Shown here in pieces: positions 40,239 to 63,759 of a stretch of 64,000 bases of DNA. The number at the start of each line of letters is the position of its first letter. Positions within the stretch are counted from its first letter, which is position 1. This DNA comes from Dehalococcoidia bacterium. Lineage in GTDB: Bacteria; Chloroflexota; Dehalococcoidia; UBA2979. The notes beneath the pieces are model-generated. The model saw only the letters and a list, made by a program, of their open reading frames with translations. It did not search any database and had not been told where the DNA came from. The stretch covers positions 3,483 to 67,482 of the forward strand of contig JAQWMB010000019.1 of the NCBI GenBank assembly GCA_029246995.1, given 5' to 3'. Position numbers and translations under genes: made by a program.

Positions 40239-40240
40239 AA

Positions 40241-47160: not shown

Positions 47161-47596
47161 ACAGCTTCTTTTTTCCGATATAGAACTTGGGCAAGAATTT
47201 TCTGATACATATATAGCAAGTGCAGAAAAAGTCCAACAGTTTCTTGATGCTAATCGTACTTTAGAAAGAACTGAAATTGAAGATGGTCGGTTTACTAGCA
47301 AGGAAGGTGCGTCTACTCTTGGTTTAGAGAAACCAATTCTTCCAGGGGTAATGAGCATGTCAATAATATCAAAATTAATCACTGATATTATTGCACCTAA
47401 TGGCAAACTACATAAACTTGATGCAAGTTTTCGAAGGCCAGTTTTTCATAATGATTCTTTAAGCTTGTCTGCCCTTGTCGTTGATACAGTTATTGAAGAA
47501 GATAAAGGAATTATTAAACTTGATGTTGCACTAGAAAATGATAGAGGCGAAAAGCCTTTGCAGGGTACAGCAGTAGTTGAATTGCCAATTAAATAA
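47150..47596 (+). CDS. MaoC-like dehydratase hotdog protein
   Basis: ATG 47150 is preceded by GGGAGG. The track start at 47075 would overlap the upstream gene by 86 nt. Hotdog-sized, 148 aa. Confidence 0.68.
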   Translation: MVNKQLLFSDIELGQEFSDTYIASAEKVQQFLDANRTLERTEIEDGRFTSKEGASTLGLEKPILPGVMSMSIISKLITDIIAPNGKLHKLDASFRRPVFHNDSLSLSALVVDTVIEEDKGIIKLDVALENDRGEKPLQGTAVVELPIK

Positions 47597-47598: not shown

Positions 47599-48387
47599 TT
47601 ATTTATTTTTCTTCTTCATAAATTCTTTTGGTCCAGCTTTTGCTTCATCAGTTTGTCCTATGATCCATCTAATGGCATGCCCCATTCTCAAAGCTTCGCT
47701 TAAAGACAGATCACGTGAATGATTTGCGATTTCTTTAGCACCAATTATTGCCATTGGTGCATTCGCAGCAATATCGCTAGCAATTTCTTTTGCAACGTTT
47801 AATAAATTTTCAGGAGTGACAATTCTTGAAATAACTCCCCAATTCCATGCATCTTGTGCAGAGTAACTATTACCAGTTAGTACCATTTCCATTGCAGGGG
47901 CTTGCGGAATAGCTTTTAAAATTCTTTGAATACCTCCACCACCAGGTACAAAACCTCGTTTTACTTCTGGTAATCCAAAAGATGAACGTTCAGTTGCTAT
48001 GCGGATATCACAAGTTAGTGCAAGTTCTAGGCCTCCTCCAAGGCAATATCCATCAATAGCAGCAATCATGGGTTTTCTTACGGGTATTGTAAAAAAATTA
48101 TCAACAGGGTTATGATTAATGAATTCCTCAACAAGACCACCAGATGCTCCAGTTGAACCAGGTTGTGACCATTCTTTCAAATCAGCACCAGCGCTAAACG
48201 CTTTTCCTCCAGCTCCCGTAATTATTCCAACTTGAATGTCCGTATCATTATGAATTCTACTCAATGCATCCATTAGAATATCACGAGCTGCACTATTGAG
48301 TGCATTCATTGCTTGCGGCCTATTTAATGTAATAAGCCCAACTTTATCTTCAATTTCAAAAATCACTGGTGAATCATTATTCATCAA
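47599..48387 (-). CDS. enoyl-CoA hydratase/isomerase (crotonase) family protein
   Basis: 262 aa with GYCLGGGLELALTCDIRIATERSSFGLPEVKRG. Confidence 0.9.
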   Translation of the reverse strand: MMNNDSPVIFEIEDKVGLITLNRPQAMNALNSAARDILMDALSRIHNDTDIQVGIITGAGGKAFSAGADLKEWSQPGSTGASGGLVEEFINHNPVDNFFTIPVRKPMIAAIDGYCLGGGLELALTCDIRIATERSSFGLPEVKRGFVPGGGGIQRILKAIPQAPAMEMVLTGNSYSAQDAWNWGVISRIVTPENLLNVAKEIASDIAANAPMAIIGAKEIANHSRDLSLSEALRMGHAIRWIIGQTDEAKAGPKEFMKKKNK

Positions 48388-48405
48388 AAAACTCTCATAA
48401 TTTTT

Positions 48406-48819
48406 TTATAGCTTAATTTCTACTTCTACAGGTTTAAGCACGTCCCTATTGTCTTTTTCAACTTTAACATTAATTAAGACATTTAGCACAGTCATATTGT
48501 TCACTAATCTAGAATCCGCAACATCAAAATCAAATTTGACTGTTTCACCTATCATTACCATGGATAGATATCTTAGTTTCATTTTTACTATAGATGCATT
48601 TTGACCTAATTCTGATATCAAGTGTTTTGCAATTATTGCTCCAAACATTTGGCCATCAACAATTGGTTTATTAACGTTTAATTTTTCTTTTACAAATTGA
48701 GAATCATAATGAAATCTATGAAAATCCCAAGTTGCACCAGCATAAGACACTAATAACTGAGGTGTTATATGTATTGATAAACTTTGAATTGTCAATTTTT
48801 CTTTCATTATTATTCTCAA
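48406..48819 (-). CDS. MaoC-like hotdog dehydratase subunit
   Basis: 137 aa with the pattern WDFHRFHYDSQFVKE...VDGQM. It overlaps the upstream partner by 4 nt. Confidence 0.68.
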   Translation of the reverse strand: MRIIMKEKLTIQSLSIHITPQLLVSYAGATWDFHRFHYDSQFVKEKLNVNKPIVDGQMFGAIIAKHLISELGQNASIVKMKLRYLSMVMIGETVKFDFDVADSRLVNNMTVLNVLINVKVEKDNRDVLKPVEVEIKL

Positions 48820-49313
48820 TTAGTAGGCATGTATATCATGTCTTCAATATTTTCAGCTAATAAAACTTTGTCTTGATTAAAGTATTGTATATTTGAAGAA
48901 ATTATTAAAAATGCAGAATCTTTTCCTTGCTTCTCAATAATGTTTACAATTTTCCATTTAACCTCAAGCTTTGTTGTAGGAAGTAGTGGATGATAAATTT
49001 TATATTCATTGCCACCCCTCACAATGGAATATTCAACATCTAAGGGAATATCCCATGAATGACCAATATATCCTTGTTCATCCATTGTTTTATTCATATA
49101 TTGATTTGTTTCAAAAATAAATGTTGGCGGAGCCACTACGTTTGCCATTTTAGGCTGATCAAGTGACGATTGATTATCATCGATTTGCTTTTTGTTATTA
49201 AGTGCTAATTCAAAATATCTGATAGAAGCAAAGCCAATTTCTTCATTAGCAAGATACGTTACCTCTTTTCCGATCATTTTCTTTACCGCTTCAGATATTA
49301 AACTCATGCTCAT
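48816..49313 (-). CDS. MaoC_dehydrat_N-type hotdog subunit
   Basis: 165 aa with the VAPPTFIF motif. It overlaps its neighbours by 4 nt on each side. Confidence 0.65.
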   Translation of the reverse strand: MSMSLISEAVKKMIGKEVTYLANEEIGFASIRYFELALNNKKQIDDNQSSLDQPKMANVVAPPTFIFETNQYMNKTMDEQGYIGHSWDIPLDVEYSIVRGGNEYKIYHPLLPTTKLEVKWKIVNIIEKQGKDSAFLIISSNIQYFNQDKVLLAENIEDMIYMPTN

Positions 49314-50416
49314 TCTTCCAATAGTGCTATTGTTTCAATTTCAATCATGAGGCCTTTTCTTATTAATCTTTCGCAGACAATTCCAGTAGAAGTTGGGAAA
49401 GGGGAGCTCAATAATTTTTTTCTAATTTTATCAGTTTTGGCGTAGCTAGGTAATCCGTCACTTGCAACATAATCTACTGTCCGAACAATATTCTTTAAAC
49501 TTCCACCGCATGCCTTTAATATTTTATTGGTTTCTTTGAATATATATTCTGTTTGCTTTTCTATATCGCCTGGAAACAAAACATCCCCAGTCGCATAATC
49601 AAAAGCAGCAAGCCCAGAAATAAAAATTAAATTGTTAGCTTTTATTGCTGGTGAAAAAGTAAGGGAGGGATGCCATTTTTTATAAGGGTTTACTATTTGC
49701 TTACTTGTTTTGGAGAGCGTAAAGTGTATTTGTATTAATTGATTATCTTCCATAAGCTTCTTCATAATGATTCCTGTAGATGCTGGATATGGTGCTGAAA
49801 AATACTTCTTTCTGATGGAATTAGTTTCTTTATATTCATGCAAAATATCTTTTCGAATAAATTCTGTTGTATTGACTACATTGTCCCAATTCATTCCTAA
49901 TTGTTTAATTTCGTCATCAACCTCTTTATAAATATTTTCTGCTTGTTCTTCTAATGTTGCAAAAGTTTTACCAGTTTTAGAAATATACAAGAGGTCTCCT
50001 GAATTTGATAAATTGTTATAAATAATTTCAATTTCTATATGTGCTTCTTTTCTTAATAGTCGATTAGACATGATTTGAGTATGTGCAACTTGCTCATTTT
50101 GCAAAAATTTCTCTCTCGTCTGATTTATAAGTTCTATCTCTTCTGCAGCTTCTGGGGTGATGTATTCAATAAAATGCAAGATACTTTGAGATTCAGATAT
50201 TGCTATTATTGACTTAATTTTTTTGTATACAATATCTAGCTGCTCTTCTAATGTGCCTGCAGCTGATACTATGTCCTTTTCTTTAATATATCTTGATGCA
50301 GTATGCCCAGATAAGAAAGTCAATTCTGGAGTATGCATTCCTAAGCTAAAACTATATCTTGAAGCGTCAAGCCAAGGAAATTTATTTGGTTCCAATGCAT
50401 ATTGATGCTTGTTCAT
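49310..50416 (-). CDS. tandem RidA/YjgF/Endoribonuclease L-PSP domain protein
   Basis: Two repeats each end in the RidA-type C-terminal motif (PYPASTGIIMKKL...IQIHFTL and PFPTSTGIVCERL...IEIETIAL). ATG 50416 forms an ATGA overlap with the upstream stop. The track start is GTG 50428. Confidence 0.65.
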   Translation of the reverse strand: MNKHQYALEPNKFPWLDASRYSFSLGMHTPELTFLSGHTASRYIKEKDIVSAAGTLEEQLDIVYKKIKSIIAISESQSILHFIEYITPEAAEEIELINQTREKFLQNEQVAHTQIMSNRLLRKEAHIEIEIIYNNLSNSGDLLYISKTGKTFATLEEQAENIYKEVDDEIKQLGMNWDNVVNTTEFIRKDILHEYKETNSIRKKYFSAPYPASTGIIMKKLMEDNQLIQIHFTLSKTSKQIVNPYKKWHPSLTFSPAIKANNLIFISGLAAFDYATGDVLFPGDIEKQTEYIFKETNKILKACGGSLKNIVRTVDYVASDGLPSYAKTDKIRKKLLSSPFPTSTGIVCERLIRKGLMIEIETIALLEE

Positions 50417-51231
50417 TGATTTATCCACTTTGGTTTTCGTTTTTCTTTATATGCATCCAAAGCTTCTGTTGCATCAAGAGTCTCTCGATTAATTTTTTGT
50501 AGTTCATAGATTTTTTTCATTGATGAAGATAAATCATTTTCCAAGGCATGTGTTATTGATTTCTTAAGGTCTTTTGCTGTAAGTGGCGGCACATAAGTTG
50601 CTATTTCTTCAGCAATTTCATAACATCGCTTCATTAAATTTTTTTCAGAGGTTATTTCATTTATAAAACCAAGCTTCAGAGCTTCTTCTGCTGATATGGT
50701 TGATGCTGTCATTGCCCATTGGAATGTTTTAGGATAACCAAGAATATCCAATATTAATTTCAAGCTTCCGTCATCAGGCAAAATGCCTCTTCTGGCAAAA
50801 ACCCATGCAAATTTTGATTGTTCATTTGCAATTCTAATATCACATGCAGCTGCAAGGCCTATGCCTGAACCAACTGCTGCACCATTTATACCACCAATAA
50901 TCGGTTTTTGTATATTTCTCATGAGATAGGTAACTGCTCGAATATCGGAGATGTGTTCAGGTAAATCATTAGTAGTAATTGGCTCTTCTGGTTCTAGTGC
51001 TTTGCCCTCTTGAACCATTTTTTTTATGTTGCCACCACCACAAAATACATCACCAACAGCAGAAAAAATGATCACTCGAACGCTATCATTTGTATCATAT
51101 TCTGTAAGTACATTGATAATTTCTTGATTCATATCAAAATTGACAGCATTTTTATTTACTGGATCATTAATCAGTATTTCTGCTATGCCAATATCGCTAA
51201 TGTGGGTCGTAATATATTTATTTTCTTTCAT
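50413..51231 (-). CDS. enoyl-CoA hydratase/isomerase family protein
   Basis: 272 aa with GAAVGSGIGLAAACDIRIANEQSKF. Confidence 0.85.
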   Translation of the reverse strand: MKENKYITTHISDIGIAEILINDPVNKNAVNFDMNQEIINVLTEYDTNDSVRVIIFSAVGDVFCGGGNIKKMVQEGKALEPEEPITTNDLPEHISDIRAVTYLMRNIQKPIIGGINGAAVGSGIGLAAACDIRIANEQSKFAWVFARRGILPDDGSLKLILDILGYPKTFQWAMTASTISAEEALKLGFINEITSEKNLMKRCYEIAEEIATYVPPLTAKDLKKSITHALENDLSSSMKKIYELQKINRETLDATEALDAYKEKRKPKWINQ

Positions 51232-51254
51232 GAGTTCATTTTATCGAAAAATGA

Positions 51255-53663
51255 TTAATTAAATATGTTTTTTTCTTCTAATTCTTCTATTTCTTTGCTG
51301 GATAGATGCAGGACATTTGCAAGAATTTCTTGAGTATGCTCACCTAAAAGTGGAGCAGGGACAAGTAATGATTTTAAATTATCAATACGCCAAGGTACAC
51401 CGGGATGTTTTACGGTCCCGCCGGTTGGATGATTGGTTTCAATAATAAATTCTCTGTGTATCAACTGAGGATCAGATAATAAGTCATCTGGCTGTAAAAT
51501 TGGACCTGATTTAATTCCTTTTTTTTGTAACTTTGTTGTTAATTCAAGGTTAGTAAATGATTGCGTCCAAGATGCAATTATATTTTCTAATTCATCTTCA
51601 TGTTTTTTTCTATTCTCATTTTTATTGAATTTATTTGAGTTAAGGATTTCACTAGCTATACAATCTTTTAATTGCTCCCATTCTTCTTCAGAAGTTATTG
51701 AAATTGCAATCCATCGATCATAACCTCTAGTCGGAAAAAAACCATGCGGTGCATACTGATCACTTCTATTACCAATTCTGCTATGCTGGACATTGTTTAA
51801 TGTCGTATCGATAATAGCATTTGGAATTAAAGTGAGCATTGGTTCAAACATTGAACCATCTATGTATTGCCCTGTGTTTGTTAATTGAGCATCGATTAGT
51901 GATGCTATAATTGCGAAAACACCATAAGACCCTGCCAATGGATCTGGCATCACCGCTCCTAAAATTCTAGGCATGCCATCTTGATAGCCAGTTAGCTCAG
52001 CTACTCCACTAAATAAATTAATTGCACTATGTAATCCGCCATGACTTGCCATTGGCCCACTTCTACCAAAGGCTCCAAGTGATAATTGTACAATTTTAGG
52101 GTTTAATTCTCTAATGGTTTCTTTAGAAAGACCTAGCTTACTCATTACGCCTGTTTTGAAGTTATCTACCACTACATCAGCAGTTTTAATAATTTCTTTT
52201 GCAAGCTTTCGAGCTTCTTCGTTTTCTAGATCTAGCTGGATACTTTTTTTACCTTCGTTTAATAAATTGAAGTGGCCACTGTTATTATAGTGGTCCTCAT
52301 TATTAGCAAACGGAGCTGTCACACGAGTAGTCATATGTTTGCTAGTTTCAAATAGAATAACTTCTGCACCCATGCGTGACAGCCATTGCGTTGCAAATGG
52401 AAGAGCAACCACTTGTCCGAAGTCAGCTATTCTTATTCCTTGCAAAGGCAGCGTTGATTCTTTATTTTCTATTTCATGCAAAATAAGAGGATGCCTCTCG
52501 GATGACCATTGTAGATCATTATTAGATTGGTCTGGGTTTATTGAATGAATTTGAATTGGTGTTTTTTCTAATTTCATTTGTGGACCAGGCATACTAAATT
52601 TCTTTTTGTTGATATTTAGATTTAAAATACTTTCACGTTGTTTAACATGCTCAGAATTAAGCATGTCGCGAATACTGTAATATGCAAAAAATGGCAAACC
52701 ATTTTTATCAGCTAATTGAATAATCTCTTTTCCAGATAACTCCATAGTCCAATTGATAATTAATTGCCTCAAGGCATCCCAATTGGCTGTTCGATCGTAC
52801 ACATTAGCAAAAACTTCAGAATCTGCCCAATCTGGATTATCCATCATAATTTTCAATTTCTCCCATTGATGATCCCAAGGTGCAGCAATTGCAACATACC
52901 CATCTTTACAAGGAACATAATAATTTGGCATTCTTGATAATGACGTTGGCAATCGTCCAATAAGTAATTCCCCATAGGCCCAGGCAGTTAAATCCCTTTG
53001 TTCATAAGAAGCGACTGCTTCTTGTATGCTGACATCAACATGATGCCCATTCCCACTGTTGATTCTCTCAAATAATGCTAGGATTGTTGCATCAGCACCT
53101 ACAATTCCAGCAATGGATTCAGCAATATTTGTATTTGGATGTAATGGTGGCTCATTTTCTTGGTCAGTAACTACATCTGGTACTCCAGGAGAAGCATATG
53201 CCATGCCACTCATAGCATATACAATTAATTCATCAGCAAAAAAATCTGAATAAGGACCATCTAAGCCAAATGGGGTAATTGTAGTAAAAACTAATTTTTT
53301 AAATTGTGTAGTAATTGTTGCTGGGGTTAGCCCGATTGCATCTAAATCAGCAAATGAAAAATCTGTAATCAAAATATCAACAGTATCTAAAATATCCAAT
53401 AATTTTTCAAAGTCAGGTTTGTCATAAACATCAAGAGTAACTGATCGTTTATTTGTACTCGTATAGATAAACGATCCACTAAATTTTAGGTCCTCTTGAT
53501 TATCGGGGAATGGTCCAATTTTTCTTAGTGGATGGCCATCGTGATTCTCGATAATGACAACCTCTGCGCCATAATCGGCAAATTGCTTTGCTGCAATTGC
53601 ACCGCTGAATCCTTTTGTTAATTCAAGGACACGTAATCCTTTTAGTGCAGAAGAGTCACTCAT
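51255..53663 (-). CDS. double-domain family III (CaiB/BaiF) CoA-transferase
   Basis: There are two CoA-transferase III N-terminal signatures: LKGLRVLELTKGFSGAIAAKQFADYGAEVVIIE, and at about residue 430 LQGIRIADFGQVVALPFATQWLSRMGAEVILFE. ATG 53663 is preferred over track start 53738 because it gives an 8-nt overlap with the upstream stop. Confidence 0.8.
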   Translation of the reverse strand: MSDSSALKGLRVLELTKGFSGAIAAKQFADYGAEVVIIENHDGHPLRKIGPFPDNQEDLKFSGSFIYTSTNKRSVTLDVYDKPDFEKLLDILDTVDILITDFSFADLDAIGLTPATITTQFKKLVFTTITPFGLDGPYSDFFADELIVYAMSGMAYASPGVPDVVTDQENEPPLHPNTNIAESIAGIVGADATILALFERINSGNGHHVDVSIQEAVASYEQRDLTAWAYGELLIGRLPTSLSRMPNYYVPCKDGYVAIAAPWDHQWEKLKIMMDNPDWADSEVFANVYDRTANWDALRQLIINWTMELSGKEIIQLADKNGLPFFAYYSIRDMLNSEHVKQRESILNLNINKKKFSMPGPQMKLEKTPIQIHSINPDQSNNDLQWSSERHPLILHEIENKESTLPLQGIRIADFGQVVALPFATQWLSRMGAEVILFETSKHMTTRVTAPFANNEDHYNNSGHFNLLNEGKKSIQLDLENEEARKLAKEIIKTADVVVDNFKTGVMSKLGLSKETIRELNPKIVQLSLGAFGRSGPMASHGGLHSAINLFSGVAELTGYQDGMPRILGAVMPDPLAGSYGVFAIIASLIDAQLTNTGQYIDGSMFEPMLTLIPNAIIDTTLNNVQHSRIGNRSDQYAPHGFFPTRGYDRWIAISITSEEEWEQLKDCIASEILNSNKFNKNENRKKHEDELENIIASWTQSFTNLELTTKLQKKGIKSGPILQPDDLLSDPQLIHREFIIETNHPTGGTVKHPGVPWRIDNLKSLLVPAPLLGEHTQEILANVLHLSSKEIEELEEKNIFN

Positions 53664-54543
53664 TTTCTTCCTCGTCAGGCAACAAGGCAGATTTTGACCA
53701 ACTTCTTGGATCTCTTGATGGCCATGAATCATCTTCAACTTGATTTAAAAATTTTTCAATCATTTGATTAAATAGATCAGGCTCTTCAAGATTTACGGTA
53801 TGTCCAGTATTTGGAACAATAAATAATCCAGATGTAGGAATACATCTTTTCATAAAAATCGATGGTTCAAGGCAGGGCTCATCTTCATCACCAGTAATTA
53901 TTAATGCAGGTATATTAATTGCTTTCATTTCTTTTTCTAAAGAAAGAATTGAAGGTCGATTTCTTTGAACTCCTAACATTGTATTAGCATGTCCTAAAGA
54001 TGAAGAATTTTGAAAAAGTCTCTTAAATTCTTCCCAAGCTTTTCGGTCTTTGTTTTGAAGTTGAACTCTCGTAGCACTGACAGTATAAACATCTCCAAAC
54101 TTTTCGATACCTTCTTGAAGTATTCGATTTGCAACATGCTCTGCATCTTTTTCAAAATTACTACGGTCTTTTGTGCTGCCATATCCAACGCCCGCAATTG
54201 TTATAGATAAACATCTTTCAGGGAACTGAATCCCAAACAAAAGAGTAGCATAACCGCCCATCGACAATCCTATAATGTGTGCTTTTTCAATATTTAATTC
54301 ATCTAATATAGATAGAATATCCTGTACAGCAATGTCTTGCGAATAACTTTTCTCTGATTCTGGTACATCAGATGGAGGATAGCCACGAGCGTTATAGGTA
54401 ATTGCTTGATATTTTTCAGAAAAATATTCAACTTGCTTTGCCCAACTAGCGTGCTCTCCAGCAAATTCATGTACAAATACTACTGGAATTCCTGAACCAG
54501 TAACTTCGTAATATAATTGCACGTCATTATTTGTTAGCGACAT
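53656..54543 (-). CDS. alpha/beta hydrolase
   Basis: 295 aa with the oxyanion VVFVHEF, the nucleophile elbow GLSMGG and a C-terminal PNTGHTVNLE. Confidence 0.85.
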   Translation of the reverse strand: MSLTNNDVQLYYEVTGSGIPVVFVHEFAGEHASWAKQVEYFSEKYQAITYNARGYPPSDVPESEKSYSQDIAVQDILSILDELNIEKAHIIGLSMGGYATLLFGIQFPERCLSITIAGVGYGSTKDRSNFEKDAEHVANRILQEGIEKFGDVYTVSATRVQLQNKDRKAWEEFKRLFQNSSSLGHANTMLGVQRNRPSILSLEKEMKAINIPALIITGDEDEPCLEPSIFMKRCIPTSGLFIVPNTGHTVNLEEPDLFNQMIEKFLNQVEDDSWPSRDPRSWSKSALLPDEEENE

Positions 54544-54571
54544 TGACTATTTTTCTCTTTTTAATTATGAA

Positions 54572-55573: not shown

Positions 55574-55630
55574 AAATTTCTCCTTAATTGTTATTGAATA
55601 AAGATAGCTTGATTATCTACACATTGTACA

Positions 55631-56719: not shown

Positions 56720-56779
56720 TTTTGTTTTCCTTAATTAGGTTCATACTTTAACTACTTGATAATATGTTCAGTATGCACT

Positions 56780-57658
56780 TTATGCAAGCATAACTGTGCC
56801 TACAATGACTTCTTCTGTATTATCTTTTTCAGCCCATACACGCAAAAATCCTTCTTCAATTTCTGAATAGAATGCATTTATTTGTTCACCTGCCCATACT
56901 GGCCTAACAAATTTTAATGACATTTTACCTCCTGATGTAAAGCGATCAGAAAAATCATTGGCTATCAGTCTTGAAATTAAACCAAAACCAAATGCACCTT
57001 GGGATAATGGGCCAGGATTTCCTTGTTTTTTTGCTAAGTCGACATTAGTGTGACCATTAATTTCGCCAGGGCCTTCAAATTGATTCATGCGATCCTGTGA
57101 TAATAATAATTGCAAATGATTGGACTCAAAATTATCTGGGCGGGGTGGTATTGGCTTGCTAGCATTTTTTTCAGGATGCTTATCAAGCTCATCTTCAGGA
57201 ATTGCAAAATACCAACTTCTTCTATTTTTTTGAATTAATTTATCTTGATCGAATATTGATGTTTCCCAATCGACATATCCTCGGCCTTTTCGAATCGATT
57301 TCTCTATAACATTGCCGGAAACAGTCAAGTCAATACCACGAGGTATATTTTCTATAAAGTCTATTTCTAATGATGCTAGTCCAGCAGAAATATCACGAAA
57401 AGGAGTAATGACATTTTGTCCAGAATAATAACTGATATAACTTGGAGCATAGTTATTATAGAGTTCTGTATTATCATCGTATAGTTCACAGCACCTTATA
57501 ATGTCCTTTTCTGAAATATTCATTACGCATGCATTAGGTAATGGACCTAATTTAAAATCATTCCAACTGATACTACGAGAATCTTGTTTTTTTTCAATTT
57601 TATTTATGGCAGGTATATTTATTAATTCTTCACTCATTTTACTTACCTCAGAAAACAT
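56780..57658 (-). CDS. fused double-hotdog (MaoC_dehydrat_N + MaoC) hydratase-like protein
   Basis: 292 aa. The C-terminal half carries HTNVDLAKKQGNPGPLSQG, a MaoC-like motif. The N-terminal half is hotdog-sized. Confidence 0.6.
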   Translation of the reverse strand: MFSEVSKMSEELINIPAINKIEKKQDSRSISWNDFKLGPLPNACVMNISEKDIIRCCELYDDNTELYNNYAPSYISYYSGQNVITPFRDISAGLASLEIDFIENIPRGIDLTVSGNVIEKSIRKGRGYVDWETSIFDQDKLIQKNRRSWYFAIPEDELDKHPEKNASKPIPPRPDNFESNHLQLLLSQDRMNQFEGPGEINGHTNVDLAKKQGNPGPLSQGAFGFGLISRLIANDFSDRFTSGGKMSLKFVRPVWAGEQINAFYSEIEEGFLRVWAEKDNTEEVIVGTVMLA

Positions 57659-57708
57659 ATTACATGAAATTATAATCTATTAATATAAATATATTTGAAA
57701 TATGACGC

Positions 57709-59259
57709 ATGAAGTGTTTAAATAGATTTTATAACATTTTTGAAAGTTTGCTTATGTCACAAAAATTAATTATTGCAACTCCTCCAACAACAAATGGATT
57801 TGACGCTGAATCAAGGGGCTTAAACGGTCTCTTTATTAGGATGTGTTATAGTAGATTGTTTGCGTATCCTGCAATTGAAGATGAGGATGGCAATCTAGTG
57901 GGTGATACTTCTAAAGTTATTGGAGTACTTGCTGATAGCTATGAAGTTTCAGAAGATAAAATGACTTATCTTGTCAATCTTAAGAAAGGCATTAAATCAT
58001 TTTATGGCAATGAATTGACAGCTAAAGATGTTGTATGGGGGTGGCAGAGAGCTTTTGCACTAAGAGATGTGGGTAAATGGGTTGCAATTATTGGTTCAGT
58101 TGTAAGTTCTGACTCAGTTGAATCGATTAGCGATTATCAAGTTAAATTTTCTTTAAGAGCCCCAAATCTAACCTTTTTACAACAATTAACTCGTGTTACT
58201 CCAGTGATTAATGATTCTACTGAAGCGTTAAAGCATGTTACCTCTGATGATCCTTGGGCCAGTAAATGGCTTTTTTCTAACCCTTGTGGATTTGGTCCAT
58301 ATCATCTTGATTCTCTTGATCCATGGAGGCAGGCGACATTTACAATAAATCCGAATTTTTATGAAGCACCTAATATTAAAGAAGTACAAGTCTTATTTGA
58401 ATCTAGCTCACGAAAGCGTGCCGCATTGCTTTCACAAGGAGAAGTAGATCTGATTCCAAACTTAGAAACTTCCCTTAAAGAATCATTGACAAATCAAAAC
58501 AATATTGTTGTAAGTCAAATTCCTTCAGGTAGGCATGCCGTTCTTGGTATGCATTTTAATCATAAGCCATTTGATGAACCATTAGTTCGTAAGGCAATTG
58601 CTTGTGCAATTCCTTACGATGCGATCATACAAGAGGCTTATCATCAAGCAGCTCATCGTTGGACCAGTCCAATGCCAATGGGAACACCCATGGCACTTGA
58701 TGTAGATTGGCCATACAATTATAACTTAGAACAAGCTCAAAAATTTCTTTTGCAGACTGACTACAAAGATGGATTTGAATCTGATTTATTTGTAGATGCA
58801 GCTGATGCAGAACACGTTGCGATGGCTGAATTAATCGCCCATTCTTTAAAAAGCATCAATATAAATATCAATATTGAAAAAATGGAGTCAGGATTATTTT
58901 GGGCTGGCGCTAGATATTTCAGACCATTTTCAATGTTAATATATGAAGATCTGCATCAAGTCCCTGATCCTTATTATACTTTAGTGCATGATTACACTAC
59001 TGGAGGAATGGGCCTTATTAATGTTGGTCAGTATCATAATGAAGAGTTAATGGATATTATAAAATCAATTGAATCCGCTGGTGTTATAGGGGAGCGTCAG
59101 GTCTTAGTAGAACAAGCACAAGAAATTATTATCGATGATTGTCCTTATGCAAATTTAGTAGCGCCTGATTTCCTAGCTGCACATAGTAGTAAAATAAATA
59201 ATTGTTATTGGGCTCCTGATCGGAGCTTAGCAGTTGAAAAAATCTCTTTTAAAAATTAG
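57709..59259 (+). CDS. family-5 ABC substrate-binding-protein homologue with no signal peptide (start uncertain: 57709 or 57754)
   Basis: 516 aa with an SBP_bac_5-like pattern (DSYEVSEDKMTYLVNLKKGIKSFYGNELTAKDVVW). The N-terminus, from either candidate Met, has no hydrophobic or Tat signal. Confidence 0.7.
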   Translation: MKCLNRFYNIFESLLMSQKLIIATPPTTNGFDAESRGLNGLFIRMCYSRLFAYPAIEDEDGNLVGDTSKVIGVLADSYEVSEDKMTYLVNLKKGIKSFYGNELTAKDVVWGWQRAFALRDVGKWVAIIGSVVSSDSVESISDYQVKFSLRAPNLTFLQQLTRVTPVINDSTEALKHVTSDDPWASKWLFSNPCGFGPYHLDSLDPWRQATFTINPNFYEAPNIKEVQVLFESSSRKRAALLSQGEVDLIPNLETSLKESLTNQNNIVVSQIPSGRHAVLGMHFNHKPFDEPLVRKAIACAIPYDAIIQEAYHQAAHRWTSPMPMGTPMALDVDWPYNYNLEQAQKFLLQTDYKDGFESDLFVDAADAEHVAMAELIAHSLKSINININIEKMESGLFWAGARYFRPFSMLIYEDLHQVPDPYYTLVHDYTTGGMGLINVGQYHNEELMDIIKSIESAGVIGERQVLVEQAQEIIIDDCPYANLVAPDFLAAHSSKINNCYWAPDRSLAVEKISFKN

Positions 59260-59274
59260 ATTAGTGAACTAAAT

Positions 59275-60519
59275 TTGTTAAAAAAACTTTTTCCTAATAT
59301 TTATGAAGGCTGGATTGTCGTTGTGGCATCAAGTTTTATCATGATGCTATCAGGTAGCACTTTCTTTTATGGCCTTAGTGCTATTTTTACTTCATTGCTA
59401 ATTGATTTTAATTGGAGTGTTGCTTCATTGTCCTTAGCCTTTTCTTTAAGAACTGAAGTCCAAGGCCTTACGGGCCCAATCATAGGTTTAAGTATTGATA
59501 GGCTTGGCCCAAGGTTTACAATTATTATGGGTATTTTAATCGCAGGGATTGCACTTTTTTGTCTTTCTCTAATTACAAACTTAGTACAATTTTATATCGT
59601 CATGTTAATTTCTGCACTTGGCATTGGAGCAGCAGGAGGACAAGTAGGGATGGCTGCTGTAGTTACTTGGTTTTCAAAGAAAAGATCTAGGGCACTCTCA
59701 ATAATGACAGTCGGTGGTGGTATATCTGGTGCATTAGTATTTATAGTTGCATGGCTAGTTGAATTTTATGGCTGGCGAACAGCAGTGCAAATCTTATCAA
59801 TATATTATTTATTAATGGGGTTATTTTTTGCAATCAATGTTAGATCTCGTCCAGACAACCATCATCAACCAATTGATGGCATTATTTTGGAATCAGAAGA
59901 CAAGATTTCACATGTCGCTCGTGGAGTGGGCTTACGCCAAGCATTAAAAACTCAATCACTTTGGGCTATAGCTTTTTCAACATCCCTGTGCTTGTTTGCT
60001 GGAGTGCCCGTCATTCTTCTAACAATCCCATTCTTAGAATCTCTTGAATACCCAAAGACTACTGCGAGTATTGGTATGATTGCATTTACGATTTCTACTG
60101 TTCTTGGGCGATTGGGCTCTGGTTATTTAGGAGATAAGTATAGTAATAAATTAATTTTACTGATTGGATACATACTTGTTAGTATTGGCACTGGGTTATT
60201 GTTTTTTGCACAAGATATATATTCTACTATGTGTTTTCTTTTAATTATTGGACCCGGATTTGGTGCAACAATTCCTCTTAGAGCATCATTAATAGCTGAA
60301 TACTTTGGTACTATTAATTTTGGTACTATTAATGGCTTTGTTGTCTTTATATCAACTTTAGGAGCTGTTTTTGGTCCATGGATAGTGGGAATAATCGTTG
60401 ATTCTTCAGGTAGTTACAGTTTAGGTTGGTTGATTTCAGGCATTGTTGCATTTTTAGCAGTTCCTGTTTTGATGATATTTGTAAAACCAATAGAAAAGTG
60501 TAAGGATAGCAATTTATGA
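59275..60519 (+). CDS. MFS transporter (oxalate/formate-antiporter-like class)
   Basis: 414 aa with 12 predicted TM segments. TTG start. Confidence 0.8.
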   Translation: MLKKLFPNIYEGWIVVVASSFIMMLSGSTFFYGLSAIFTSLLIDFNWSVASLSLAFSLRTEVQGLTGPIIGLSIDRLGPRFTIIMGILIAGIALFCLSLITNLVQFYIVMLISALGIGAAGGQVGMAAVVTWFSKKRSRALSIMTVGGGISGALVFIVAWLVEFYGWRTAVQILSIYYLLMGLFFAINVRSRPDNHHQPIDGIILESEDKISHVARGVGLRQALKTQSLWAIAFSTSLCLFAGVPVILLTIPFLESLEYPKTTASIGMIAFTISTVLGRLGSGYLGDKYSNKLILLIGYILVSIGTGLLFFAQDIYSTMCFLLIIGPGFGATIPLRASLIAEYFGTINFGTINGFVVFISTLGAVFGPWIVGIIVDSSGSYSLGWLISGIVAFLAVPVLMIFVKPIEKCKDSNL

Positions 60520-61342
60520 ATAAAAAAAGTTATTTGTTAATAATGTTAATCTTACTTATACAGATTCACAAAATGGATATCCAGTTATTTTTCAACATGG
60601 TTATACAAATTCAAAAAAAGTTTGGCAAGAAATTACTCCTCATATTCAATCTGATTATAGATGTATAACCTTTGATTCAAGGGGTTGTGGTGAAAGCGAT
60701 AGGCCAATTGATGGATTTACATTAGATGGGTATGTTAAAGATATAATTAGCTTGGCAGATAAACTTAATATTGATAAATTTCACTTTGTTGGCCATAGTA
60801 TGGGTGGCTTAATTGGTATGTGGTTAGCACATTGTTTTCCAAAAAGAATTGATAAAATGATTTTAATTGCACCTGCTCCTTCAGTAGGGGTGAGAGATGG
60901 ATTACTATTTGATGACATGATGAAGCGAAATCGAAGAATTAGAAAAGATCAAGATATAGATTTATTAATAAAAGAAAGAATAAAAACTTCGAGTTTACCA
61001 ATCACTGAAGAGCAAGCTAGAGAACGATCTCTTGATTTTTTAGATGTTAGTGATGAACATTTTGAACAATCTGGAAAAATGATTGCAAGTGCAAATATCA
61101 GAAAAGAATTAGAATTAATAACTAATGATGTAATGTATATTGTTGGAGCAGCTGATTTTTTATTGAAAGATAATTTAGAAGATTTTTTAGTAATGAAGAA
61201 TGCTTCATTGCATGTATTTAGTAGAATAGGACATAGTATTCCTCGAGAAATTCCCATAGAATGCTCACAAGTAATAAAAGATTTTTTCAAACATGGTGTT
61301 GTTAATTTCAAAACATTAACTCAAAAAGTAAGTGATTCATAA
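60516..61342 (+). pseudogene. alpha/beta hydrolase with its reading frame broken at an A7 tract (60522-60528)
   Basis: ATG 60516 overlaps the MFS stop (ATGA). Reading ATG AAT AAA AAA then shifting -1 (equivalent to A8) gives MNKKKLFVNNVNLTYTDSQNGYPVIFQHGYTNSKKVW...FDSRGCGESD..., which is continuous with track ORF 60752-61342 (GHSMGG nucleophile elbow). The 76 conserved codons 60524-60751 contain no ATG, GTG or TTG. Confidence 0.8.
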
Positions 61343-61343
61343 T

Positions 61344-61862
61344 ATGCCTATTTATACATTAGGAAACTTATCTCCAAAAATTCATCCAGATGCATACGTT
61401 GCTCCATCGGCAGATATAATCGGCGATGTTACTGTAGAAGCAAATGCTTCTATTTGGTTTGGCGCGGTGCTTAGAGGCGATTCGGGTCCAATTGTGATAG
61501 GTGAAAATTCAAATATTCAAGATTTATGTATTTTGCATGAAGCTGTTACGATTGGTAAAAACTGCGTATTAGGTCATGGAGTTCTTGCACATGGCATAAC
61601 CATGCATGAAGGAGCTGCTCTCGGCAATGGCGCATTGGTTCATGAAGGAAGTGCCATAGGAGCTGGTGCTATTGTCGCTGCAGGTTCTGTTGTAAATGCA
61701 AATACTATAATACCAAAAAATACTATTTGGATGGGTATTCCAGCAATATTGAGAGGCCAGGTTCCAGAAAGAATTTCTAGCCGATTTAAAAATACGTTAA
61801 GTGATTATTTAGAACTCAAAGTTCAATATGCAAATAGTCTTATAGAAGAGATTGAAAAGTAA
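61344..61862 (+). CDS. gamma-carbonic-anhydrase-like / PaaY-like left-handed beta-helix protein
   Basis: IHPDAYVAPSADIIGDVTVEANASIWFGAVLRGDSGPIVIGENSNIQD..ILH is the typical gamma-CA family N-terminus. ATG 61344 lies 1 nt after the upstream stop. Confidence 0.85.
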   Translation: MPIYTLGNLSPKIHPDAYVAPSADIIGDVTVEANASIWFGAVLRGDSGPIVIGENSNIQDLCILHEAVTIGKNCVLGHGVLAHGITMHEGAALGNGALVHEGSAIGAGAIVAAGSVVNANTIIPKNTIWMGIPAILRGQVPERISSRFKNTLSDYLELKVQYANSLIEEIEK

Positions 61863-61883
61863 TTTTTATGGTATAATTACTTT

Positions 61884-62933
61884 ATGAGTAAACACAATTA
61901 TACTGTTTTAGAATCAAATAGTTCTCAAGAAATTTTATTAGAATTACGTGATAATAATCTATGGATTGGTCAAGATGATTTATCATTAAAATTGAATTGG
62001 ACCTTAAAGCCTGAAGGTCTTTGTAAAGAAGAAATATGTGTACCTGTTAAGCAACCGACTTTATTATCTTCGGATAGTCAAATTAATTTAATGCAATTTG
62101 CTCAAGAGCTTAATCGTCCCCTTACTTTAGAATTAAATAAAAACGTAGTCTTTTTAGGAGAATCAGCGTATGACCGCTCTGTCGCATTGTATTCTCAGCA
62201 AGCACCAGAAATTACACTTCCCGATTTAGATGGAAATCTACATAATCTATCTGAACATTTTGGAAAAAAATTATGCTTAGTCGTTCATGCTTCATGGTGA
62301 GGATGCAGACAAGATTTGCCAGTTTGGCAGAAAATATACTCTGAATTATCTAATTACAATTTTACAGTTTTTTCTGTAATGGAAGATAAGAATATTGATG
62401 ATGCTCGCCCTTGGATAGAGGGAGCCAATGCTGAATTTCCATGTACAATTGATACTAAACATATTGTTTCAGATTTGTACAACATGTTTAATGTCCCTAC
62501 AATAGTTTGGATTGATGAATCGGGAAAAATAGTACGACCAAATGATGTTGTAGTTATGAATGAAAGTGGAGCTAAGCTTGTTAAAGTTGATCCAGAAGAA
62601 TATATTCAAAAGATTAGAAATTGGGTTATTAATGATTCAAGCCCAGTTTCTTCAAAGGATGAATTCATTAAATTAAAAAATCAAAGAACTCCTGCAGATA
62701 AAGAACAATTGGCGAGAGCAGAATTTGCATTAGGACAATGGTTGTTTGATAATAAGGAAATTAGTTTAGCAGGTAATCACTTTGAACGTGCGACTGAATT
62801 ATCTCCCGCTGATATCATGATACAAAGGGGGACTATGTCAATGAGAGGCATGGATCCTATGAAAGATTATGGTCCCATTGCTGGTGAAATAATACAAAAG
62901 GGATTTAAGCTGTATAGACCTATTAGAGATTAG
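61884..62933 (+). CDS. thioredoxin-fold (TlpA/ResA/redoxin-like) selenoprotein, W-U-G-C redox motif (in-frame TGA at 62298-62300)
   Basis: Track ORFs 61884-62300 and 62316-62933 are in the same frame (offset 432 nt) and are separated only by the TGA. The joined sequence reads APEITLPDLDGNLHNLSEHFGKKLCLVVHASW-U-GCRQDLPVWQKIY...FSVMEDKN...FPCTIDTKHIVSDLYNMFNVPTIVWIDESGKIV. This is the canonical redoxin pattern with Sec replacing the first Cys of WCxxC. Confidence 0.85.
62315..62331 (+). promoter_or_regulatory. candidate SECIS hairpin downstream of the UGA in the redoxin selenoprotein
   Basis: UUUGCCA-GUU-UGGCAGA. The core is 5 Watson-Crick pairs (62317-62321 with 62325-62329), extended by a U.G and a U-A pair. 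It starts 14 nt after the UGA, and the loop contains G. Confidence 0.5.
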
Positions 62934-62949
62934 TATTTGAGGAGATAAA

Positions 62950-63759
62950 ATGACTTATAAAGACTATGAAACTTTAGTGATTGATTTTACTGGTTATGTT
63001 GCAACTGTAAGGATGAATCGTCCAGAAAAACTTAATGCATTTGATCAAATAATGGGTAAAGAGTTAATTAAGGTTACAGATGATTTAAAAAACAACGATG
63101 ATGTGAGATGCATTATTTTGACTGGAACCGGTAGAGGATTCTGCTCAGGAGTCGACTTAGGTCAAGATAGAACACCAGCAAAAGAAAATATTTTCAGCAG
63201 AGGAATGCTTGATGAGCATGGTTTTAGTGGTCGCGTGGCACTAGCTTGGAATGAAATTGATAAGCCAACTATTGCTGCTATTAATGGCGTTGCGGCTGGA
63301 GGTGGTCTTGGTTTAGCAATGCTTCAAGATATACGAATAGCTGCTGAATCTGCAAGATTAATTCCAATCTTTTCAAGACGTGGGATTGCACCAGAACTTG
63401 GTATGAGTTGGACTACACCTAATGTTATTGGATACAGTAAAGCTCTCGAATGGTTTTATACAGGAGATGAATTATCTGGTCAACAAGCTTTTGATTTAGG
63501 TGTTGCAAATCATGTAGTAGAAGATGCCAGGCTACAAGAATATGCTTTAGAGTTAGCTACAAAGATATCTGAATGGAGCTCTCCTATAGCAACAAGGCTC
63601 ACAAAACGGACAGTCTATGCTAGCTTAAACTCAGATAGCTTAAGGCAACATTTAATTTATGAAGCTATGAATGTAGGTCTAGGAAGTTCTACAGAAGATA
63701 CTGTGGAAGGGCGTGCATCTATTATTGAAAAAAGAAAACCTGAATTTAAAGGTAAGTAA
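62950..63759 (+). CDS. enoyl-CoA hydratase/isomerase family protein
   Basis: 269 aa with GVAAGGGLGLAMLQDIRIAAESARL. Confidence 0.88.
   Translation: MTYKDYETLVIDFTGYVATVRMNRPEKLNAFDQIMGKELIKVTDDLKNNDDVRCIILTGTGRGFCSGVDLGQDRTPAKENIFSRGMLDEHGFSGRVALAWNEIDKPTIAAINGVAAGGGLGLAMLQDIRIAAESARLIPIFSRRGIAPELGMSWTTPNVIGYSKALEWFYTGDELSGQQAFDLGVANHVVEDARLQEYALELATKISEWSSPIATRLTKRTVYASLNSDSLRQHLIYEAMNVGLGSSTEDTVEGRASIIEKRKPEFKGK

Follow-up and report, generated by a model that had tools for sequence, protein, structure and literature searches.

A conserved sixteen-gene cluster in marine Dehalococcoidia as a candidate CoA-dependent catabolic operon

Sixteen genes on a contig of a Dehalococcoidia bacterium form a divergent pair of operons whose gene order is conserved in several lineages of the class. 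The stretch that we analysed, hereafter the window, comprises 64,000 nucleotides (nt) of contig JAQWMB010000019.1 (assembly GCA_029246995.1, positions 3,483-67,482 of the forward strand); window positions are used throughout. On balance, and with modest confidence, we regard the region as a true catabolic unit, inherited together in marine genome-streamlined Dehalococcoidia (SAR202-type), which would process an imported carboxylic acid as its coenzyme A (CoA) thioester.

All 16 genes are found in the same order and orientation in independent assemblies, at 62-71% identity of the double-hotdog protein that heads the minus-strand operon, and the split reading frame of a redoxin gene is retained as well; over all the assemblies that keep the complete order, double-hotdog identity spans 62-92%. 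A chance juxtaposition is thereby excluded. The synteny check proposed by an earlier, sequence-only reading of the window thus came out in favour of the cluster, with the full order conserved in several Dehalococcoidia lineages. Proteins identical to LLM1 (one of two luciferase-like, or LLM, proteins), P0003 and P0006 occur in 38-50 blocks of a public assembly index, with contigs from Tara, JGI, ENA and Logan.

Bacteria of the SAR202 group abound in the ocean; that they oxidise recalcitrant dissolved organic carbon with their expanded families of flavin enzymes and CoA-transferases is a proposal still awaiting biochemical proof. The cluster turns this genome-wide idea into a small, defined, conserved and expressible gene set, a compact test case. 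It also holds two enzyme forms without an assigned role, namely a three-domain Rid protein (3x-Rid) partnered with a heteromeric hydratase, and a one-chain CoA-transferase that resembles BbsEF.

Layout, conservation and reduction of the cluster

Between 44 and 64 kb the open reading frames (ORFs) comprise ten minus-strand genes, from 57658/57637 down to 47599, and six plus-strand genes, from 57709/57754 to 63759, the latter with gaps of at most 21 nt. Start sites were reset from orthologue lengths. With these corrected starts the minus-strand gaps are 60, 57, 28, 23 and 18-21 nt, and four junctions overlap: ABH1/CoA-transferase by 8 nt, ECH_b/Rid by 4-16 nt, Rid/hotdog-N by 4 nt and hotdog-N/MaoC by 4 nt (or an 8-nt gap at the last). 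The tight divergent pair of ten and six genes first described from sequence, with gaps of up to 60 and 21 nt and four overlaps of 4-16 nt, was therefore reproduced by the ORF calls. The spacer had been put at 50-95 bp; homologues set the double-hotdog start at 57637 and the start of the solute-binding protein (SBP) at 57754, which gives 116 bp. The features, in window order, are as follows (ABH, alpha/beta hydrolase; ECH, crotonase; MFS, major facilitator superfamily).

47599..48387, minus: ECH_a, canonical enoyl-CoA hydratase, 261-262 aa, last minus-strand gene (Pfam ECH_1, 6e-56; both catalytic Glu present)
48406..48819, minus: MaoC subunit of a split hydratase pair, 133-137 aa (Pfam MaoC_dehydratas, 2e-12)
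48816..49313, minus: hotdog-N, the N-type subunit of the same pair, 163-165 aa (Pfam FAS1_DH_region)
49310..50428, minus: 3x-Rid protein, 368-372 aa, predicted single-chain pseudo-trimer (three Pfam Ribonuc_L-PSP stretches)
50413..51231, minus: ECH_b, PaaG/isomerase-like crotonase, 272 aa (Pfam ECH_1; both catalytic Glu missing)
51255..53663, minus: fused double class III CoA-transferase, 802 aa (two Pfam CoA_transf_3 stretches)
53656..54543, minus: ABH1, MenH/PcaD-like alpha/beta hydrolase, 295 aa (Pfam Abhydrolase_1)
54572..55573, minus: LLM2, Mer/F420-type luciferase-like oxidoreductase by NCBIfam and PDB matches, 333 aa
55631..56719, minus: LLM1, luciferase-like candidate flavin mononucleotide (FMN)-type oxygenase, 362 aa (Pfam Bac_luciferase, 1.3e-49)
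56780..57637, minus: fused double hotdog of hydratase-2 type, 285 aa, first minus-strand gene (weak Pfam MaoC match)
57638..57753, no strand: divergent intergenic region, 116 bp
57754..59259, plus: signal-less SBP_bac_5 homologue, 501 aa, predicted cytoplasmic (Pfam, 2.8e-63)
59275..60519, plus: MFS transporter of the monocarboxylate or oxalate-formate antiporter type, 414 aa (Pfam MFS_1)
60516..61342, plus: ABH2, PcaD-like alpha/beta hydrolase with a broken frame (Pfam Abhydrolase_1; intact orthologues 274-275 aa)
61344..61862, plus: gamma-carbonic-anhydrase-like, PaaY/CaiE-like hexapeptide protein, 172 aa (Pfam Hexapep)
61884..62933, plus: ResA/AhpC-TSA-like redoxin with an in-frame TGA at 62298-62300 in the motif HASW-U-GC, and a hairpin at 62315-62331
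62950..63759, plus: ECH_c, PaaG-like crotonase, 269 aa, last plus-strand gene (Pfam ECH_1; both catalytic Glu missing)

Every gene family named in the sequence-only reading, which had suggested assignment by profile models, was matched by Pfam. Across the 16 genes these are a MaoC-type double hotdog, two Bac_luciferase, two Abhydrolase_1, a double CoA_transf_3, three ECH_1, Ribonuc_L-PSP, the FAS1_DH_region and MaoC pair, SBP_bac_5, MFS_1, Hexapep and AhpC-TSA/Redoxin. In an NCBIfam scan of the same genes, none reached an equivalog (function-specific) cutoff.

Low-GC lineages share conserved blocks in the divergent spacer, e.g. GTGTTTAAATGGATT. Neither Rfam at gathering thresholds nor a scan for tRNAs gave a match in the whole window, so there is no sign of a riboswitch or RNA regulator in the spacer. 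A sigma-70 and terminator consensus scan was uninformative against shuffles of this AT-rich DNA, with promoter-like sites fewer than in the shuffles and terminator-like sites no more numerous, and was set aside. The cluster had also been described as lacking a regulator gene. Indeed none is found among the 16 genes, but this is a feature of the streamlined derivative; deeper relatives carry a Fur-family gene.

The Chloroflexota/Dehalococcoidia affiliation of the window fits both the homologue sources and the base composition. The named homologues of the double hotdog all come from metagenome-assembled genomes (MAGs) of Dehalococcoidia/Chloroflexi, and a pattern-based scan of limited sensitivity across 185,579 species-representative genomes gave six double-hotdog loci, all in Dehalococcoidia/Chloroflexi. 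The GC content is about 0.32. Low GC content and small genomes are a hallmark of 'genome-streamlined SAR202', lineages that are reported to make up more than 90% of SAR202 in the euphotic zone (PMC11994032).

Comparison with deeper relatives changes the picture of what the window holds. At about 43% double-hotdog identity (loci L014, L017, L019 and L020) the divergent layout is kept and extra genes appear. The SBP side of these relatives carries SBP5, a short-chain dehydrogenase/reductase (SDR), MFS, ABH2, gamma-CA-like, Fur-family, CbiM, PDGLE, a fused ABC ATPase, PNPOx-like and ECH_c genes. The other side begins with the double hotdog, LLM1, a class I CoA-transferase A/B pair, LLM2 and an Amidohydro_1 protein of about 490 aa, continues with a 3-hydroxyisobutyrate-dehydrogenase-like protein, a CMD protein on the other strand and ABH1, and ends with the fused transferase, two acyl-CoA dehydrogenases (ACADs), ECH_b, 3x-Rid, hotdog-N, MaoC and ECH_a. 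In L004-L006 and L016, an intermediate lineage, the two LLM genes are still separated by the class I transferase pair. Set against these fuller clusters, the window version is a reduced derivative and not a complete pathway. To read the gene set as a full pathway, as had been done, is thus no longer tenable: it is without the relatives' two ACADs, class I CoA-transferase pair, amidohydrolase, CMD protein, two dehydrogenases, and Fur-family gene with a CbiMNQ/O-type transporter.

Part of the cluster is also found in other phyla. A Burkholderiales MAG (L024) has the order fused transferase, ACAD, ACAD, crotonase, Rid, hotdog-N, MaoC, which is collinear with the window except for the two inserted ACADs; identities to the window proteins are 42% (transferase), 44% (ECH_b), 25% (Rid), 39% (hotdog-N) and 41% (MaoC). 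In L022 (Bradyrhizobium) and L023 the hotdog-N/MaoC pair comes directly after the 3x-Rid gene, near ACADs, a FadB-type enzyme, a thiolase and AMP ligases. L025 runs zf-ChsH2/ACP_syn_III-like, thiolase, transferase, 3x-Rid, LLM, NMO-type, hotdog-N, two ACADs, MaoC, crotonase. The hotdog-N and MaoC genes are collinear in distant loci, with hotdog-N directly after the 3x-Rid gene in L014, L022, L023 and L024 and about 2.4 kb downstream of it in L025, beyond the LLM and NMO genes. Judged by gene order, the five-gene core of transferase, PaaG-like crotonase, 3x-Rid and split MaoC pair is a beta-oxidation-type module that is not SAR202-specific.

We also observed a paralogous module (LLM, fused transferase, ABH and crotonase, with RidA and CMD nearby) in L012/L013, at about 3.17-3.19 Mb of OZ253555.1, a 3.67-Mb Dehalococcoidia chromosome shared with L020. 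L025 is listed among the paralogous modules. Paralogous modules elsewhere in the same chromosomes indicate that the module has been duplicated within genomes, which fits the SAR202 paralogue expansions.

One further feature of the cluster concerns its recent history.

47700..56692, no strand: 9.0-kb block of nine genes, LLM1 through ECH_a, about 99.6% DNA-identical to another lineage

The partner is a Mediterranean Dehalococcoidia MAG, GCA_045562675.1 (L010/L002), and both flanks are about 75% identical to it, within a range of 63-84%. At the protein level identity is 99-100% inside the block against 70-90% outside; one breakpoint falls within ECH_a and the other among the first codons of LLM1. 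A 120-bp patch at 51,348-51,465 is about 79% identical to every compared lineage. L026, a contig of 2.6 kb from a lineage that is sister to that of the window, is 85-97% identical over the double hotdog and the SBP start and falls to 75-83% exactly at the LLM1 start, so the block is foreign to the window's own lineage. Either a nine-gene cassette was recently replaced by homologous recombination, or two co-occurring populations were joined in a chimeric assembly. A near-identical block with divergent flanks is what we would expect if the block is a selectable unit and, if real, it clearly documents the movement of a catabolic cassette from one uncultured lineage to another, diverged one.

Enzymes and the proposed scheme

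The C-terminal half of the fused CoA-transferase has 9fn0_B as top PDB match (E 4.6e-49), with SUGCT, YfdE and Frc also matched, and the sole strong solved match of the N-terminal half is 9fn0_A (E 1.8e-35); these two chains are the two benzylsuccinate CoA-transferase subunits. D574 is invariant in an alignment of 119/119 fused homologues and sits where the catalytic Asp is expected, at about residue 170 of the C-terminal half, which makes Asp574 the probable catalytic residue. The equivalent position in the N-terminal half may be D, E, Y, H or Q (E182 in the window protein). Because the halves match different Bbs subunits, and because D574 is invariant while the N-terminal site varies, we infer that the 802-aa protein is a BbsE-BbsF-like pseudo-heterodimer, covalently joined, in which a single active site is obligatory. 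Dicarboxylates (benzylsuccinate, glutarate/hydroxymethylglutarate and oxalate) are the substrates of its best solved relatives, and its own substrate is probably of this type. The fused architecture is widespread, with 342 matches in Chloroflexi, Burkholderiales, Deltaproteobacteria, Binatia and Acidobacteria. An upstream AMP-forming ligase (42365-44104) was considered as a pathway member and rejected; it passes the acetate-CoA ligase cutoff and is hence treated as a probable housekeeping enzyme.

The hydratases are of several kinds. Only seven homologue clusters of the double hotdog were found among 5.8 billion proteins. Its conserved motif is GPGEINGHTNV, in which GPGEINGH stands where GDxNPxH is expected. 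An AlphaFold model of moderate confidence (predicted local distance difference test, pLDDT, 69) matches MFE-2 hydratase 2, HtdX, Rv3389c, MeaC and PaIch, i.e. mesaconyl-CoA and itaconyl-CoA hydratases as well as hydratase-2 enzymes for bulky or branched acyl-CoAs. These matches, together with the CoA-transferase, raised the possibility of an itaconate/mesaconate route, which we rejected: citramalyl-CoA lyase is absent, and the mesaconate transferase score is 329 against a cutoff of 700.

Hydration had earlier been assigned to hotdogs and crotonases alike, which stands for one crotonase and not for the other two. ECH_a carries both catalytic Glu residues, in the motifs GGGLELAL and GLPEV of a three-crotonase alignment, and its top NCBIfam match is EchA19 (224 bits, cutoff 400). 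ECH_b and ECH_c have Gly and Phe at these sites and share a PaaG-like segment, RRGI(L/A)P(D/E). For ECH_b the replacement by G and F is seen in alignment with 2pbp and 2ej5, and 4fzw_C (PaaG) is among its top PDB matches. Against the PaaG model TIGR02280 (cutoff 345) ECH_b scores 112 bits and ECH_c 172 bits.

The two luciferase-like genes had been called monooxygenases. Both are Bac_luciferase members, and for LLM1 the label may hold: its top NCBIfam match is the MupA/Atu3671 family (101 bits, cutoff 244) and its top PDB match the LuxA homodimeric luciferase 8cbb. LLM2 rather resembles Mer and F420-dependent reductases. Its top NCBIfam matches are F420-dependent LLM subfamilies and Mer, all under cutoff, and its top PDB matches are methylene-tetrahydromethanopterin (H4MPT) reductases.

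Both hydrolases are most like 3-oxoadipate enol-lactonase or MenH, under cutoff. ABH1, with the nucleophile elbow GLSMGG, scores 95 bits against MenH (cutoff 209) and 88 against PcaD (cutoff 256). A menaquinone biosynthesis role, which a MenH-like hydrolase, a MenA gene 1.6 kb away, crotonases and hotdogs might bring to mind, was rejected on the MenH score of 95 against 209 and the lack of a MenB equivalog among the crotonase matches listed. The frameshift previously noted in ABH2 is real as far as the window goes: an A7 run at 60522-60528, just after the ATG at 60516, leaves the gene out of frame by one A, an added A restores MNKKKLFVNNVNL..., and relatives are intact. A homopolymer sequencing error, recent pseudogene formation or slippage-dependent expression would each account for the break. 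Small indels also separate L002/L010 (the long-read MAG GCA_045562675.1) from L001/L009 (Logan short-read contigs of the same population); they truncate the MFS and ABH2 calls of the MAG to 394 and 225 aa, against 410 and 275, and are probably sequencing errors in the MAG.

The Rid protein departs furthest from its first description. It was taken for a tandem RidA and given a role in imine or enamine clean-up. Pfam, a repeat alignment and a structural model all give three repeats, not two. In three aligned orthologues these repeats have His, Ser and Ser at the site equivalent to Arg105 of what we take to be the E. coli RidA reference sequence. An Arg that binds the substrate carboxylate is needed for imine hydrolysis, and '3x-RidA' three-domain fusions are already on record (Niehaus 2015, PMC4433059). 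All three repeats being without this Arg, and the context being MaoC hydratase clusters, the imine/enamine role was dropped.

The protein passes the generic Rid subfamily model TIGR00004 narrowly (107 against 106.25). Its AlphaFold model is confident (pLDDT 92.3; predicted template modelling score, pTM, 0.92), and the top full-length Foldseek matches are the chorismatases 5a3k, 4bps and 5ag3 (FkbO/Hyg5), with TM scores of 0.55-0.63 over about 346 aligned columns at 14-16% identity; no chorismatase model is among its NCBIfam matches. A profile search gave about 328 representative 3x-Rid clusters at E<=1e-30. The gene is linked to the heteromeric MaoC hydratase within beta-oxidation-type clusters in five other genomes, and its neighbours are acyl-CoA enzymes in six loci.

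On the plus strand, the SBP homologue begins MSQKLII..., with a non-hydrophobic N-terminus and, in relatives, in-frame stops just upstream. A second SBP_bac_5 gene of the window (35655-37262) offers a useful contrast, since its N-terminus, RRRQF...MNAC, is a twin-arginine (Tat) plus lipobox signal (MQLRRRQFLNLTGMSLFGFIMNAC). The signal-less state noted from sequence was thus borne out and, being shared by all lineages, presumably makes the cluster protein cytoplasmic. Its nearest PDB matches are HbpA, YliB/GsiB and NikA. The MFS transporter scores highest against the L-lactate MFS transporter SfMCT (145 bits, cutoff 320), followed by the OFA family. NCBIfam scores of the hexapeptide protein are 124 (cutoff 250) for gamma-CA, 100.7 (319.6) for PaaY TIGR02287 and 96.8 (305) for CaiE.

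The redoxin had been read as a selenoprotein, and this reading is supported: the in-frame TGA in the W-U-G-C context lies at the same codon in four lineages (L001/L002/L004/L007), with a flanking protein that is 55-83% identical and a frame that continues. The downstream hairpin has a 7-bp stem and a GUU loop, lies 17 nt downstream of the TGA and keeps its pairing through G/A exchanges between lineages. The expected fold is obtained, yet with an energy that does not differ significantly from shuffles (z = -0.86), so support for selenocysteine comes from TGA conservation and from SelD, not from hairpin energy. The window's SelD gene (15360-16400, plus strand) passes two NCBIfam equivalog cutoffs and has an in-frame TGA of its own at 15411-15413, in an N-terminal CAG-U-GGK loop; the ORF finder gave only the part after this TGA. 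By this motif SelD is itself a selenoprotein, and the TGA codons of both genes make it very probable that the host decodes selenocysteine. Against NCBIfam NF041054, a 'ResA-like WAxxUGC motif-containing protein', the redoxin scores 219.6 bits (cutoff 300) over model positions 8-205 of 354, and it appears to lie within, or near, this already curated selenoprotein family. Deeper relatives lack the redoxin and have at the same position the Fur-family/CbiM/PDGLE/ABC metal-uptake/PNPOx-like block (L019, 881-4634).

Taken together, these assignments allow us to sketch a scheme. The MFS carrier would import a carboxylic acid, which the fused transferase, acting through Asp574, would activate with CoA taken from a donor, succinyl-CoA or acetyl-CoA for instance, with no ligase. 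The double hotdog, the heteromeric hotdog pair and ECH_a would add or remove water across enoyl-CoA bonds, and ECH_b and ECH_c, acting like PaaG, would move double bonds or else open or hydrolyse a ring. LuxA/MupA-like LLM1 may insert oxygen, Mer-like LLM2 may run a flavin or F420 redox step, and the PcaD-like ABH1 and ABH2 may cleave the resulting ester, lactone or enol-lactone. The 3x-Rid protein would act with the heteromeric hydratase on an enol- or enamine-type CoA intermediate. As accessory functions, the selenocysteine redoxin could provide peroxide or thiol control and the PaaY/CaiE-like protein could deal with off-pathway thioesters. For acyl-CoA dehydrogenation and thiolysis the organism would depend on genes outside the cluster, unless it has lost these steps. 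A bulky, branched or alicyclic (di)carboxylate is the most likely substrate, to judge from the hydratase-2 and heteromeric MaoC enzymes, the paired ACADs of the fuller versions, the dicarboxylate-type relatives of the transferase and the multiple lactonases.

Several points weigh against such a catabolic scheme. Pfam shows neither an acyl-CoA dehydrogenase nor a 3-hydroxyacyl-CoA dehydrogenase, thiolase or lyase among the 16 genes, which on their own therefore do not make up a complete oxidation cycle. LLM1 lies nearer to LuxA than to camphor type II Baeyer-Villiger enzymes, which are not among its PDB matches at E<=1e-5; LLM2 is perhaps a reductase rather than an oxygenase; and a flavin reductase partner for the LLMs is absent from the cluster. 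The role of the 3x-Rid protein is one that we purely infer. One hydrolase gene, ABH2, is frameshifted in the window. No substrate-specific family was matched, with all equivalog scores under cutoff.

A bolder version of the same idea, which we think rather unlikely, is that the core is an undescribed cross-phylum acyl-CoA module whose chorismatase-like Rid performs a new CoA-thioester reaction, e.g. one that hydrolyses or tautomerises an enol-ether, enol-lactone or enamine. In surface-ocean SAR202 the core, with the LLMs and lactonases added, would then form a mobile nine-gene cassette for carboxyl-rich alicyclic dissolved organic matter, swapped between diverged lineages by homologous recombination.

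Alternative functions

Of the alternatives, the one that survives best, although still unlikely, does away with ring oxygenation: a bbs-like beta-oxidation of a substituted succinate or other dicarboxylate, in which the carbon chemistry falls to the fused CoA-transferase, the hydratases and the isomerases, and the LLMs are F420/FMN reductases or dehydrogenases that replace lost ACADs or SDRs. The transferase, whose halves match the two benzylsuccinate CoA-transferase subunits and whose other top matches are dicarboxylate transferases, agrees with it. So do the two ACADs that directly follow the transferase in deeper relatives and in the Burkholderiales locus, the thiolase and zf-ChsH2/DUF35-type protein of L025, which recall BbsAB, and the resemblance of LLM2 to Mer/F420 enzymes. 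PNPOx-like split-barrel proteins, often F420- or FMN-dependent, also accompany the cluster. However, LLM1 groups with FMN oxygenases (LuxA and the MupA family), the 2-4 lactonase-type hydrolases conserved in or beside the cluster would be superfluous for pure beta-oxidation, and equivalents of BbsG, BbsCD and BbsAB are absent from the window cluster.

The combination of an LLM, a Rid protein and an alpha/beta hydrolase recalls RutA, RutC and RutD. This suggests a Rut-like route for an N-containing ring or an amino-acid-derived acid, in which the LLM cleaves an amide or lactam, Rid and the hydrolases clear an enamine, imine or peracid, and the redoxin reduces peroxy species. The deeper relatives add the 490-aa Amidohydro_1 and a CMD/AhpD-like protein, and aminotransferases lie near the 3x-Rid genes of L022 and L023. 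That said, the Rut scores are weak (RutC 54.6 bits against a cutoff of 169; RutD 62.9 and 67.5 against 238.5), no RutA-type LLM match was found and there is no RutB, RutE or RutF. The three Rid repeats are without the Arg essential for imine hydrolysis (PMC4433059), and the Rid gene is linked to MaoC hydratases and ACADs, not to pyridoxal-phosphate (PLP) enzymes or amine oxidases. We regard this route as distinctly improbable.

Could the cluster be a decaying remnant, in a streamlined lineage that is losing the pathway, with 16 genes that no longer act together? The loss of ACADs, class I CoA-transferase, amidohydrolase, CMD and dehydrogenases relative to deeper relatives would fit, as would the frameshift of ABH2. 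Yet the remaining frames are intact and the order is kept in several low-GC lineages at 62-92% identity, ABH2 is intact in relatives and its break is a 1-nt homopolymer change, the nine-gene block was recently shared between lineages, and identical proteins recur in the 38-50 assembly-index blocks. Decay is thus a very unlikely explanation.

A last candidate is the catabolism of algal osmolytes, either dimethylsulfoniopropionate (DMSP) by a DddD-like transferase or a carnitine-type betaine by a CaiB/CaiD/CaiE-like set. DddD is a fused double class III CoA-transferase with an essential Asp in its C-terminal half, so the fusion counts in its favour. Despite the report by Landry 2017 (PMC5395668) of DddD as the top Swiss-Prot match of some SAR202 transferases, and despite the CaiB/CaiD/CaiE family triad and the surface-ocean lineage, this account is hardly credible: 0 of the 120 best transferase homologues are named DddD; CaiB (147 against 413), CaiD (164 against 500) and CaiE (96.8 against 305) are outscored by other families; the cluster is without a BCCT transporter, CaiA and CaiC; and the LLMs, 3x-Rid, two hotdog hydratases and lactonases would be roleless in those routes. 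A plasmid tblastn search for DddD was also discarded, as the best matches were unnamed transferases of 25-29% identity, and the one inspected consisted of two separate genes in an unrelated acyl-CoA cluster.

Neighbouring genes and comparison with known systems

The catabolic unit that we favour is flanked by a conserved cluster neighbour.

46708..47596, plus: convergent second split hotdog pair, 150 + 173 aa, from ORF calls

Orthologues of this pair are FAS1_DH_region and MaoC proteins at the same place in L001-L011 and L014. Another MaoC hotdog (26902-27291) lies within a small-gene trio at 26507-27733 on the plus strand, whose flanking ORFs of 130 and 143 aa have no family match. The window thus has at least four hotdog hydratase loci (26902-27291, 46708-47596 and two in the cluster).

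Further upstream, 44517-45977 (plus strand) encodes a MenA-type prenyltransferase, which narrowly passes TIGR00751, fused to an N-terminal PNPOx-like FMN/F420-binding split-barrel domain. The fusion is conserved beside the cluster in low-GC lineages, and deeper relatives have a free-standing PNPOx-like gene inside the cluster. The stretch 37803-44104 (minus strand) holds a divergent MmgE/PrpD-family protein (46-48 bits to PrpD models), an AEC-type membrane transporter, a Zn-dependent dehydrogenase on the plus strand, a citrate/2-methylcitrate synthase II that passes TIGR01800, and the acetate-CoA ligase equivalog. These enzymes could serve as a sink for acetyl- or propionyl-CoA made by the cluster; nothing was found that links them to it. 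A gene for nickel superoxide dismutase (Sod_Ni) lies at 18602-19036 on the minus strand; in deeper relatives the cluster itself includes a CbiM-type Ni/Co uptake system.

No known pathway fits this composition, and the sequence-only reading had recognised none; the Paa, Cai, Rut, bbs, steroid and beta-ketoadipate systems do not fit, and all equivalogs are under cutoff. Several of them share parts with the cluster. With the phenylacetate (Paa) pathway it shares PaaG-like ECH_b and ECH_c, PaaF-like ECH_a, hotdog enzymes, a PaaY-like hexapeptide protein and CoA-bound ring chemistry, whereas the PaaABCDE oxygenase, PaaK ligase, PaaZ, PaaJ and PaaH are absent from the Pfam and NCBIfam results for all 16 genes. 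From the Cai system it differs by the absence of the ACAD, ligase and BCCT carrier (CaiA, CaiC and CaiT). The DddD of Marinomonas is likewise a tandem class III CoA-transferase of about 800 aa, but the neighbours of the cluster transferase are unrelated to ddd clusters. The chorismatases FkbO/Hyg5/XanB2 are, like the 3x-Rid model, single-chain pseudo-trimers of three YjgF folds; sequence identity is 14-16%, and the 3x-Rid context is acyl-CoA metabolism and not shikimate or polyketide starter units.

Benzylsuccinate is degraded by beta-oxidation through BbsEF, BbsG, BbsH, BbsCD and BbsAB (PMC10818641). The likeness lies in a class III CoA-transferase of two different halves, at the level of architecture and similarity only, in the subsequent dehydrogenation and hydration of a substituted dicarboxyl-CoA, in the ACADs of deeper relatives, and in the thiolase and DUF35-type partner of L025. 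In contrast, the window transferase is one chain, MaoC-type hotdogs occur as well as crotonases, and LLMs, lactonases and 3x-Rid are extra. The BbsG ACAD, BbsCD SDR pair and BbsAB thiolase/DUF35 are not among the 16 genes, and the window organism is aerobic and marine, as against an anaerobic toluene degrader.

Actinobacterial steroid side-chain and ring C/D catabolism employs ChsE1-E2, ChsH1-H2, IpdAB and EchA19/EchA20 (PMC5380842). The cluster resembles it in the adjacent N-type and MaoC hotdog genes with a 4-nt overlap, a likeness known here at the level of gene architecture only, in the class I CoA-transferase-like A/B pair and paired ACADs of fuller versions (L004, L014), and in ECH_a, which is nearest EchA19. 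It differs in that the window cluster has no KstD/Ksh/Hsa set, ACAD, thiolase, aldolase or ligase, in the EchA19 score (224 against 400) and in its class III activation.

The closest precedent is the SAR202 hypothesis itself. In Landry 2017 (PMC5395668) the logic runs from a flavin monooxygenase through a lactone, an esterase or lactonase and ATP-free CoA transfer to beta-oxidation-like steps, with MFS transport. The route of uptake, CoA activation, LLM oxygenation, lactone cleavage and beta-oxidation first proposed for the window is supported in part, and is essentially that published hypothesis. The window shares with it two LLMs, a CaiB/BaiF-type CoA_transf_3 protein, an MFS_1 transporter and, apparently, the bacterial class. 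However, in the passages searched, that paper concerns genome-wide family counts rather than a defined syntenic 16-gene unit in low-GC surface lineages, and the hypothesis does not include 3x-Rid, heteromeric and double-hotdog hydratases and a selenoprotein, all of which the window cluster has. The words operon and synteny are not used in the searched text of that paper or of the 2020 pangenome paper, and no paper on this cluster was found in the literature searched, the coverage of which lies outside subscription journals. In summary, the cluster is, as its family assignments indicate, a CoA-dependent catabolic operon of known superfamilies in an uncharacterised composition, whose general logic was anticipated in the literature. 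The novelty is the specific conserved cluster, not the general idea.

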